Shown one piece after another: positions 16,235-16,456 of a stretch of DNA of 24,923 nucleotides. The notes below the pieces were generated by a model. It was not told the origin of the DNA and ran no database searches. It saw nothing but the letters and a program-made list of their open reading frames with translations. The position numbers were made by a program, and so were the translations under genes. The stretch lies in UHGV virus genome UHGV-0143632; one strand, 5' to 3'. How positions within the stretch are numbered: the first letter of the stretch is position 1; each line of letters opens with the position of its first letter. The DNA is from a virus.

Positions 16235-16456
16235 TTAATTACACAGTCGCATATCCTGAAGTAACACATCTATAGCTAACTTCACAGCGAGATCATCCAA
16301 TTCATCATGGTGAAGCACTCGGATCATTCCCGCAATAGCATCTGCTGAAATAGCTTCCCCAGTAGCAATAACCTCAAGCAACGACACCCCTAGAATTTCG
16401 ACTACCCGCTGGTGCAACACACCAAATTCCCCTTCGATTAACATGCAATCACCCAT
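16235..16456 (-). CDS. Small acidic hypothetical protein (about 73 aa) between the repressor and pL, on the opposite strand
   Basis: ATG at 16456 preceded by SD AAGGGGGAAAGG; the track ORF begins at a TTG 15 codons upstream; translation MGDCMLIEGEFGVLHQRVVEILG... Confidence 0.4.
   Translation of the reverse strand: MGDCMLIEGEFGVLHQRVVEILGVSLLEVIATGEAISADAIAGMIRVLHHDELDDLAVKLAIDVLLQDMRLCN

Follow-up and report, generated by a model that had tools for sequence, protein, structure and literature searches.

Few regulatory regions have been studied as thoroughly as the cI-OL-pL-N region of lambdoid phages, yet it holds, in the phage sequence analyzed here, a small gene that is either unannotated or called 'hypothetical'. 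The sequence, a stretch of 24,923 nucleotides hereafter called the window, features an immunity region about 99% identical to those of the Stx-converting phages PA28 and 06-3462 and of a set of Stx1a phages. There, an ORF lies between a cI-type repressor and pL, where an initial annotation, by analogy with lambda rexAB, had seen a rex/exclusion position and possible repressor control. Is this ORF a real gene, does it correspond to rexAB in position and regulation, and what may its product do?

The ORF is present as described: 73 codons (MGDCMLIEGEF...MRLCN) on the minus strand, opposite to cI, at 16235-16456, opening with ATG at 16456 and closing with TAA (16237-16235); in this reading the product is acidic (pI 4.32; D+E = 13 vs K+R = 4). 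Its borders were also correctly placed: it starts beside the OL operators, the nearest of which is 76-88 bp away, and it ends at the terminator hairpin that follows cI (16207-16224), 10 nt from its stop. The ribosome binding signal that had been pointed out is found as a purine-rich run, AAGGGGGAAAGG (16466-16477, minus strand), 9 nt upstream of ATG 16456, for which it may act as a Shine-Dalgarno sequence. The choice of the start codon, in contrast, holds only in part: ATG 16456 exists, while RefSeq (PGAP; WP_024166114.1), all homologues and the PHROG profile begin at the second ATG, 16444, which lies 12 nt later and is preceded by a Shine-Dalgarno match, GGTGAT, at 16453-16448. The most likely CDS runs from there (16235-16444, minus strand): its 210 nt encode 69 amino acids plus stop, for an acidic protein (pI 4.4) of the PHROG 3946 family, predicted to form three helices. 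The predicted transcription start falls inside the purine-rich run, which favours ATG 16444 as the initiation codon. The four extra codons (MGDC; 16445-16456, minus strand) represent an alternative in-frame start, limited to the E. coli subgroup: they are annotated in phage 06-3462, and missing from all diverged homologues. Two other readings were rejected: one of 88 aa, from a TTG start at 16501, would fall within the conserved promoter and A/T tract described below, and a 52-aa ORF on the minus strand (16028-16186), which runs into the 3' end of cI, lacks support.

The small gene is genuine, conserved and under purifying selection. The protein matches the PHROG 3946 HMM over its full length (E 3.2e-30; residues 6-70 on profile positions 2-67 of 67) and is a member of this family, which differs from a characterized one in that neither a name nor a function nor any literature goes with it. 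When 1.84 billion cluster representatives were searched with the single sequence, only 7 matches were returned, one of which (P0013, a 1438-aa acidic repeat adhesin) was rejected as compositional; a family profile, built from the few relatives so obtained, retrieved 558 related proteins at E<=0.01. Among the 120 matches listed of these 558, nearly all are 64-70 aa long, and the hosts are Salmonella, Klebsiella, Citrobacter, Enterobacter, Serratia, Yersinia and others. Relatives reach down to about 35% identity, with length, position and upstream motifs kept. Pairwise dN/dS values (Nei-Gojobori, 27 distinct coding sequences) have a median of 0.17, and 98.6% of 215 pairs are below 0.5. Lack of conservation in related immunity regions had been named as grounds for abandoning the proposed gene; the family proves conserved there, and the homology and structure checks that had been suggested lead to PHROG 3946 and to a predicted AriR-like three-helix bundle.

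Of 5426 complete E. coli genomes, 50 carry the gene, O157 and O145 STEC among them. A CDS is annotated under the match in all E. coli genomes among the matches listed (25/25), and the 210-nt CDS is intact in the three complete genomes inspected (3/3). It also occurs, unannotated or as 'hypothetical', in phages ST104, epsilon34, g341c and SPN9CC and in several Klebsiella prophages. That the ORF arose by chance or is decaying, without function, might be read from the several phage records that leave it unannotated and from the frameshifted or truncated versions seen in some assemblies (P0001, P0004-P0008). The latter are confined to short-read assemblies, and the conservation data effectively refute such a reading, whose probability is close to nil: selection, the reach of the family, the constancy of length, position and upstream motifs, and the intact frame in complete genomes are all against it. 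A GGGG run lies in the CDS, at 16385-16395, where short-read variants (P0001, P0002, P0004, P0005) are frameshifted or altered near the ...EILGVSLLEV... codons. Because complete genomes keep the frame, these variants are probably assembly or sequencing errors, not pseudogenes.

The position of the gene was compared over 95 loci (80 IMG/VR loci, 6 GTDB species genomes, and contigs with chosen homologues). In nearly all loci with enough flank the same order is found: the first pL gene (N or an analogue, divergent), the ORF, a variable cargo, cI (convergent) and cro. The cargo measures 0-2 kb and is on the cI strand; it may consist of a P63C-domain protein (phrog_2384), phrog_6191, phrog_34525, a SocA_Panacea + DUF3024 set, or others. 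Some loci, among them the window, L107, L109 and L014, have no cargo gene. In the window, the cI-type repressor (HTH_3 + Peptidase_S24) occupies 15375-16082 on the plus strand, convergent with the small gene, and is followed by an empty cargo slot (16083-16206, plus strand), the positional equivalent of lambda rexAB; a search of 16083-16234 for remnants of cargo genes gave none. What lies between cI and the small gene resembles a hotspot for defence or cargo genes, and the mosaic cI-N interval is known as a hotspot where prophages carry defence genes, rexAB and BstA among them (PMC8585504).

The slot is closed by a timm-like intrinsic terminator of the cI transcript (16207-16224, plus strand), made of the hairpin CCCGGCTCCAGTGCCGGG followed by TTTTATTT. 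On the plus strand the hairpin has a folding energy of -13.4 kcal/mol (z -3.5); the T-run is present on the cI strand only, and the strand of the small gene lacks a U-run. A CCCGGC...GCCGGG hairpin is found right after the ORF stop in about half of the distinct loci, and in several family loci it is about 90% identical to lambda timm; where present, it parts cargo from small ORF. An Rfam scan of 15900-16900 detected no RNA family, the sole match being a chance one to potC (E 0.67). Lambda (NC_001416; L099 752-930) keeps both flanks of this arrangement: on one side timm, on the other the segment that extends from the start of pL over OL1-3 as far as the TTTATTTTTT tract. The DNA in between is non-coding and about 115 bp long in lambda; in the phages of the family, a candidate promoter and the ORF take its place. 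Prophages with lambda-type operators do have the gene, as seen in L012 (Enterobacter adelaidei) and in the IMG/VR contigs L070 and L077.

The rex position assigned to the ORF does not withstand this comparison. In relatives, cargo of the rex type sits on the cI strand between cI and the ORF, in the slot that is empty here; the small ORF is on the opposite strand, past the hairpin, at the place of the non-coding DNA of lambda, and not downstream of cI, on its strand and before the operon terminator. Known genes for comparison are cargo of the cI-N interval: lambda rexAB, BstA and 933W Stk. The small gene has in common with them the broad cI-pL interval, a mosaic hotspot (PMC8585504). They differ from the small gene in lying downstream of cI, on its strand and before the terminator, and in being transcribed with cI; the small gene is constant, and similar to none of them in sequence or structure.

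The convergence of ORF and cargo raises the possibility that the small protein is the partner of a convergent cargo gene, as antidote, self-immunity factor or regulator, left orphaned in this window. A phrog_6191 gene (about 345 aa) faces the ORF both in Serratia immunity regions and at an unrelated Yersinia prophage end, and in about 20 loci a P63C protein is convergent on it. The same ORF type, however, is combined with at least 5 unrelated cargos, or with none, and is still intact and under purifying selection; moreover, convergence across a terminator makes no operon. Such a partnership is judged highly improbable.

The regulation of the gene was analyzed starting from the operators. The pattern ATAACnnnnGTTAT is found at OR (15301-14, 15326-39, 15350-63) and in three sites of the same type forming the OL cluster (16532-16590): 16532-45, with 2 mismatches, 16552-65, with 1, and 16577-90, perfect. 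In the whole window the pattern occurs 18 times with up to 2 mismatches, vs 7.4 expected; perfect matches are found only at OR and OL. Candidate pL elements, placed by comparison with lambda, are located on the plus strand at 16565-16600: a -35 TTGTAC (16565-70) and a -10 TATCTT (16588-93), separated by a 17-nt spacer, with +1 near 16600. The start, AACAGCAGGACGC, resembles that of lambda pL, ATCAGCAGGACGC; from about 16593 onward the sequence is homologous to the N leaders of phage 21, mEpX1 and VT1-Sakai. The candidate pL is divergent from the small gene.

The stretch separating OL3 from the ATG holds a conserved motif. Most of 49 distinct upstream sequences have a TTTATTTTT tract and, 11-13 nt further on, TGnNAnnnT at -36 to -43 from the ATG, and this across unrelated immunity types; an A-rich leader and the Shine-Dalgarno sequence come next. 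Examples of the motif are TGCGATACT, TGCCATACT and TGCTATGCT; the window has TGATATTTT. The motif is read as a putative extended -10 sigma-70 promoter of the small gene. In the window, the candidate element is TGaTATTTT (16479-16487, minus strand), with TG at 16487-86 and the -10 hexamer at 16484-79; transcription is predicted to start near 16472. The candidate has a poor -35, and a generic sigma-70 scan neither called it nor detected a consensus promoter for the gene. Two alternative promoter readings, TTGTAC-N17-TTTTAT, sharing the pL -35, and TTGATA-N17/18-TATAAA, as in Salmonella loci, were rejected, as they are not conserved in the subgroup of the window.

The initial annotation had reasoned that the promoter would have to overlap OL/pL, and that the gene might consequently be repressor-controlled. 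The conserved candidate promoter argues against the first point, as it fits within the 76 bp between ORF and OL3 with no operator-like site over it: no match to the operator pattern, with up to 2 mismatches, is found in 16457-16531, and none overlaps the predicted core promoter. Repressor control is consequently not implied, and this arrangement argues for an expression that would be independent of cI. The predicted start lies about 66 bp downstream of the centre of OL3 (16532-45), with the site as a whole some 60-73 bp away, so that some influence of the repressor is possible. This proximity, and the presence of defence genes elsewhere in the cI-N interval, are what would favour the reading that follows from the initial annotation, a rex-like superinfection exclusion gene with a repressor-controlled promoter overlapping OL. 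Yet the gene is outside the cargo slot, on the other strand and past the terminator of the cI operon, its conserved promoter motif is overlapped by no operator, and, if it were repressed in the lysogen, a superinfecting phage could not be excluded. Its product, furthermore, is a soluble acidic protein of 69 aa, featuring neither membrane nor enzymatic traits, and the PADLOC-DB 2.0 defence HMMs gave no match at E<=1 to either the 73-aa or the 88-aa reading. With no known exclusion or defence family matched, position was the sole argument for such a function, which appears improbable.

Phage morons, which are independent units of promoter, gene and terminator within a prophage, offer another comparison. 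Like them, the small gene is compact, has a candidate promoter to itself and stops at a hairpin, and it is missing from lambda, which keeps both flanks; it would probably be expressed from the prophage. It differs from morons in being constant in position and presence across diverse prophages, rather than sporadic, and in that the hairpin, with no U-run on its strand, is primarily the terminator of the opposing cI operon.

Between OL3 and the candidate promoter, a match to the IHF consensus core is present: TATCAGTCATTTA (pattern WATCARNNNNTTR), at 16520-16532 on the plus strand. The pattern has 3 matches in the 24.9-kb window vs 2.2 expected, a count not significant by itself; by eye, similar IHF-like cores are seen at the same place in L004 and L008. 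IHF binding upstream of lambda pL has reportedly been documented by Giladi et al., and 16520-16532 is a putative IHF site. The A/T tract TTTTATTTTTT (16500-16510, minus strand), conserved next to OL3 across immunity types, lambda included, forms the -35 region of the candidate promoter; it is at the same time the A/T element located 5' of the IHF-like core on the pL strand. Tract and core may serve pL, the small gene, or both.

An IHF-like site common to pL and to the promoter of the small gene would suit a protein that tunes the switch between lysis and lysogeny, acting through the S24 domain of cI, RecA*, cII/cIII with FtsH, or N with Nus factors. Such a role would also fit a constant element placed beside OL/pL in prophages whose other modules swap freely, and the presence, in nearly all loci with enough flank, of a repressor matching the cI profile, of S24 type in all those scanned with Pfam. 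The small protein, however, is not matched to operator or repressor specificity. The L064 ORF has only 47% identity to that of the window, although the cI of this locus reaches 82%; a single Salmonella-type ORF is found with several cI having at most a short local match to that of the window; and N proteins likewise vary independently of the ORF. The identity of the ORF does not follow that of cI and N, and the gene is therefore not tied to immunity specificity. Besides this absence of co-variation, lambda, P22 and most of the studied lambdoid phages have complete switches without the small gene, which is also found outside any immunity region. A role in the switch is thus considered unlikely.

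Among near-identical E. coli copies (L018-L033), the few SNPs cluster in OL and pL (window 16530-16600): the pL -35 appears as TTGTAC, TTGCAC, TTGCGC or TTGAAC, and the half-sites of OL1 and OL3 vary. The stretch including the promoter and RBS of the small gene is invariant in the same copies. The cluster may reflect selection on operator or promoter strength.

What the protein may do was approached through its predicted fold. When AlphaFold2 was given an alignment of 30 sequences, a three-helix bundle was obtained (helices 6-32, 38-48 and 56-66) with a pLDDT of 81.6 and a pTM of 0.69; with an alignment of 7 sequences the pLDDT was only 62.5. A search of the full PDB by Foldseek places 2oxl_A, the structure of AriR (YmgB), at the top (probability 0.90, TM 0.54/0.63, E 0.79); AriR is the best structural match by two independent methods, and the model shares the 2OXL fold, a three-helix bundle. 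Among predicted structures of viral proteins (BFVD), Foldseek returned nothing at E<=0.001, and a sequence search of the PDB with the family profile gave only insignificant matches, such as Syo1 (E 0.1).

Profile comparisons point in the same direction. In hhalign, the family profile has E values of 6e-4 vs YcgZ, 2.8e-3 vs YmgA and 0.07 vs AriR, with one common register; when 12 non-redundant relatives of YmgB, YcgZ and YmgA are aligned as the template, E is 9.5e-5 over 43 columns, with a probability of 58.7%, below the usual standard of 90-95%. Controls are weaker: E is 0.037 when the template is reversed and, at best, 0.0065 when its columns are shuffled (30 shuffles). The Pfam family PF10798, carried by all true relatives of YmgB, YcgZ and YmgA, is matched neither by the small protein at E<=1 nor by eight diverse members at E<=10, and scans of the 73-aa and 88-aa readings against Pfam, NCBIfam and PADLOC found nothing meaningful. 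A remote homology to the YmgB/AriR family is thus probable but unproven, and formal membership is not established.

Further features are shared with the YmgB/AriR group (with YcgZ and YmgA). Proteins of both families are small (70-90 aa in the latter), cytoplasmic, helical and acidic, with a pI of 4.6 for AriR and of 4.05-4.51 for the family, where net charge ranges from -8 to -15; the common register covers a ...LG.AV..iL....n.sr..li motif, and both families are confined to Enterobacterales. On the other hand, identity is only about 11-16%, PF10798 is not matched, and the phage gene is single-copy, at a fixed site of the immunity region, not in the BluR-controlled ycgZ-ymgABC operon. YmgB works through protein-protein binding, and its R74G substitution abolishes SpoT binding (PMC10704370). 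In a manual alignment, this R74, which contacts SpoT, corresponds to a hydrophobic residue of the small-protein family; because of this, SpoT cannot be assumed to be the target here too. YmgB-family proteins form homodimers and modulate Rcs signalling and/or SpoT by direct binding (PMC10704370, PMC3509220); the ymg operon activates Rcs and modulates biofilm, and for the ymgB locus, which is flanked by prophage genes and adjoins e14, a phage-associated transfer has been proposed (PMC3509220).

A different identity is suggested by some database entries, where family members are called 'Fumarase D' or 'DUF2767', after YdhZ/FumD (PF10965). YdhZ is likewise 69 aa long and can be weakly aligned at a ..VvG..V.E....EP motif. 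This identity was rejected: while YdhZ itself matches PF10965 at 6.6e-41, no family member tested does, the hhalign comparison with YdhZ (E 0.02-0.03, probability about 2%) is at the level of the controls, and the acidity of YdhZ is of a different kind. The names look like transferred annotations.

Taken with the absence of a DNA-binding signature, the independent candidate promoter and the restriction to Enterobacterales, fold and acidity give most support to an AriR-like protein, expressed constitutively and acting by binding another protein; the proposal is held tentatively, as plausible rather than probable. The product, encoded by the prophage, would be a cytoplasmic protein, small, three-helical and strongly acidic, and distantly related to the 'connector' proteins YmgB/AriR-YcgZ-YmgA of E. 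coli. Transcription would start from its own sigma-70 extended -10 promoter, operator-free, located between the gene and OL3 and pointing away from pL, so that the protein would be present both in the lysogen and at an early stage of infection. It would bind and modulate another protein, not DNA; the target could be a host signalling or stress regulator, as SpoT and Rcs are for AriR, or an early phage protein. Promoter, expression in the lysogen, mode of action and target are all inferred. Some of the above results weigh against the model: no member reaches PF10798 even at E 10, the Foldseek E value is only 0.79 and the hhalign probability 59%, three-helix bundles are a common fold, the residue equivalent to R74 is hydrophobic, and the promoter, with its poor -35, is supported by motif conservation only and was not called by the generic scan.

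One group of family members suggests a different role. In a Yersinia-type myovirus prophage, the gene is found at the prophage end, after the tail-fibre genes. It directly follows, in the same orientation, a gene for a non-specific nuclease: in L097 (3145-4195) an Endonuclease_NS gene stops 1 nt before the ATG of the ORF; in L101 (4371-6295), L089 and L102 a PLDc_2 nuclease ends 93 nt upstream of the family member. Two DinI-like genes adjoin it in these variants and, in the PLDc_2 one, a convergent phrog_6191 protein, a cargo also of Serratia immunity regions. This context suggests a role as nuclease inhibitor or DNA mimic, or a link to phrog_6191. By inhibiting a nuclease or mimicking DNA, the protein could block a DNA-cleaving or DNA-binding enzyme, such as a host restriction or defence nuclease directed at the DNA of an incoming or induced phage, or restrain a phage-borne nuclease before its export. 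The acidity of the family fits known protein nuclease inhibitors and DNA mimics, and a constitutive promoter beside pL would allow immediate expression on infection. The two Yersinia variants, however, are a single lineage, since their DinI neighbours are 96% identical, and elsewhere the ORF is found with many cargos or none. A nuclease inhibitor or DNA mimic accordingly has a fairly small likelihood; the AriR-like binder remains the preferred reading.

Searches of the literature on the family, its accession, DUF2767, P63C and small ORFs beside cI found no description of the gene. The protein is already catalogued, as PHROG 3946 and as 'hypothetical' in RefSeq. What is new is the constant position of the gene, as a boundary element of lambdoid immunity regions, together with its putative conserved promoter architecture and its probable kinship with AriR/YmgB. 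The gene is found at one fixed place in E. coli, in Salmonella (ST104, epsilon34 and many P22-like phages), in Klebsiella, in Serratia and in other hosts; bounding the variable defence-cargo slot next to cI, it could aid automated searches for prophage defence genes. Should the protein work like AriR and be produced by lysogens, it would count as a widespread lysogenic-conversion factor that affects stress, biofilm or the stringent response of pathogens, or else as a modulator of Stx-phage induction. A bolder picture, to which a low probability is given, would see in many lambdoid prophages of Enterobacterales, Stx-converting and P22-like ones included, an unrecognised constant element of the immunity region: an AriR-like connector, whose promoter would be associated with IHF and diverge from pL, would couple the prophage to host signalling (Rcs phosphorelay, SpoT/ppGpp, acid resistance or biofilm) or set the threshold of induction, and the chromosomal ycgZ-ymgA-ariR genes would descend from such phage genes.

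Minor observations concern the surrounding genes. On the plus strand, the first gene of the pL operon encodes an N-type antiterminator (16790-17095; phrog_271, E 8e-35; Pfam N_peptide, weak). It is immediately followed by an ORF of 94 aa (17101-17385, plus strand), which has no Pfam, NCBIfam or PADLOC match and which in related records is 'hypothetical' and drawn as overlapping the end of N. On the minus strand are cro (15040-15264), a cII-like gene (14627-14923), an O-like gene (13301-14389) and a DnaC/P-like gene (12554-13294). Cro is of the YdaS/HTH type (Pfam YdaS_toxin, PF15943, E 2e-18), the family of YdaS from the Rac prophage; the same type of cro is present in many loci featuring the small gene. 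In the O-like replication protein, a (QE)6 run (SSQEQEQEQEQEQERD) separates the N-terminal from the C-terminal part; it is encoded by a short tandem repeat, whose length could vary.
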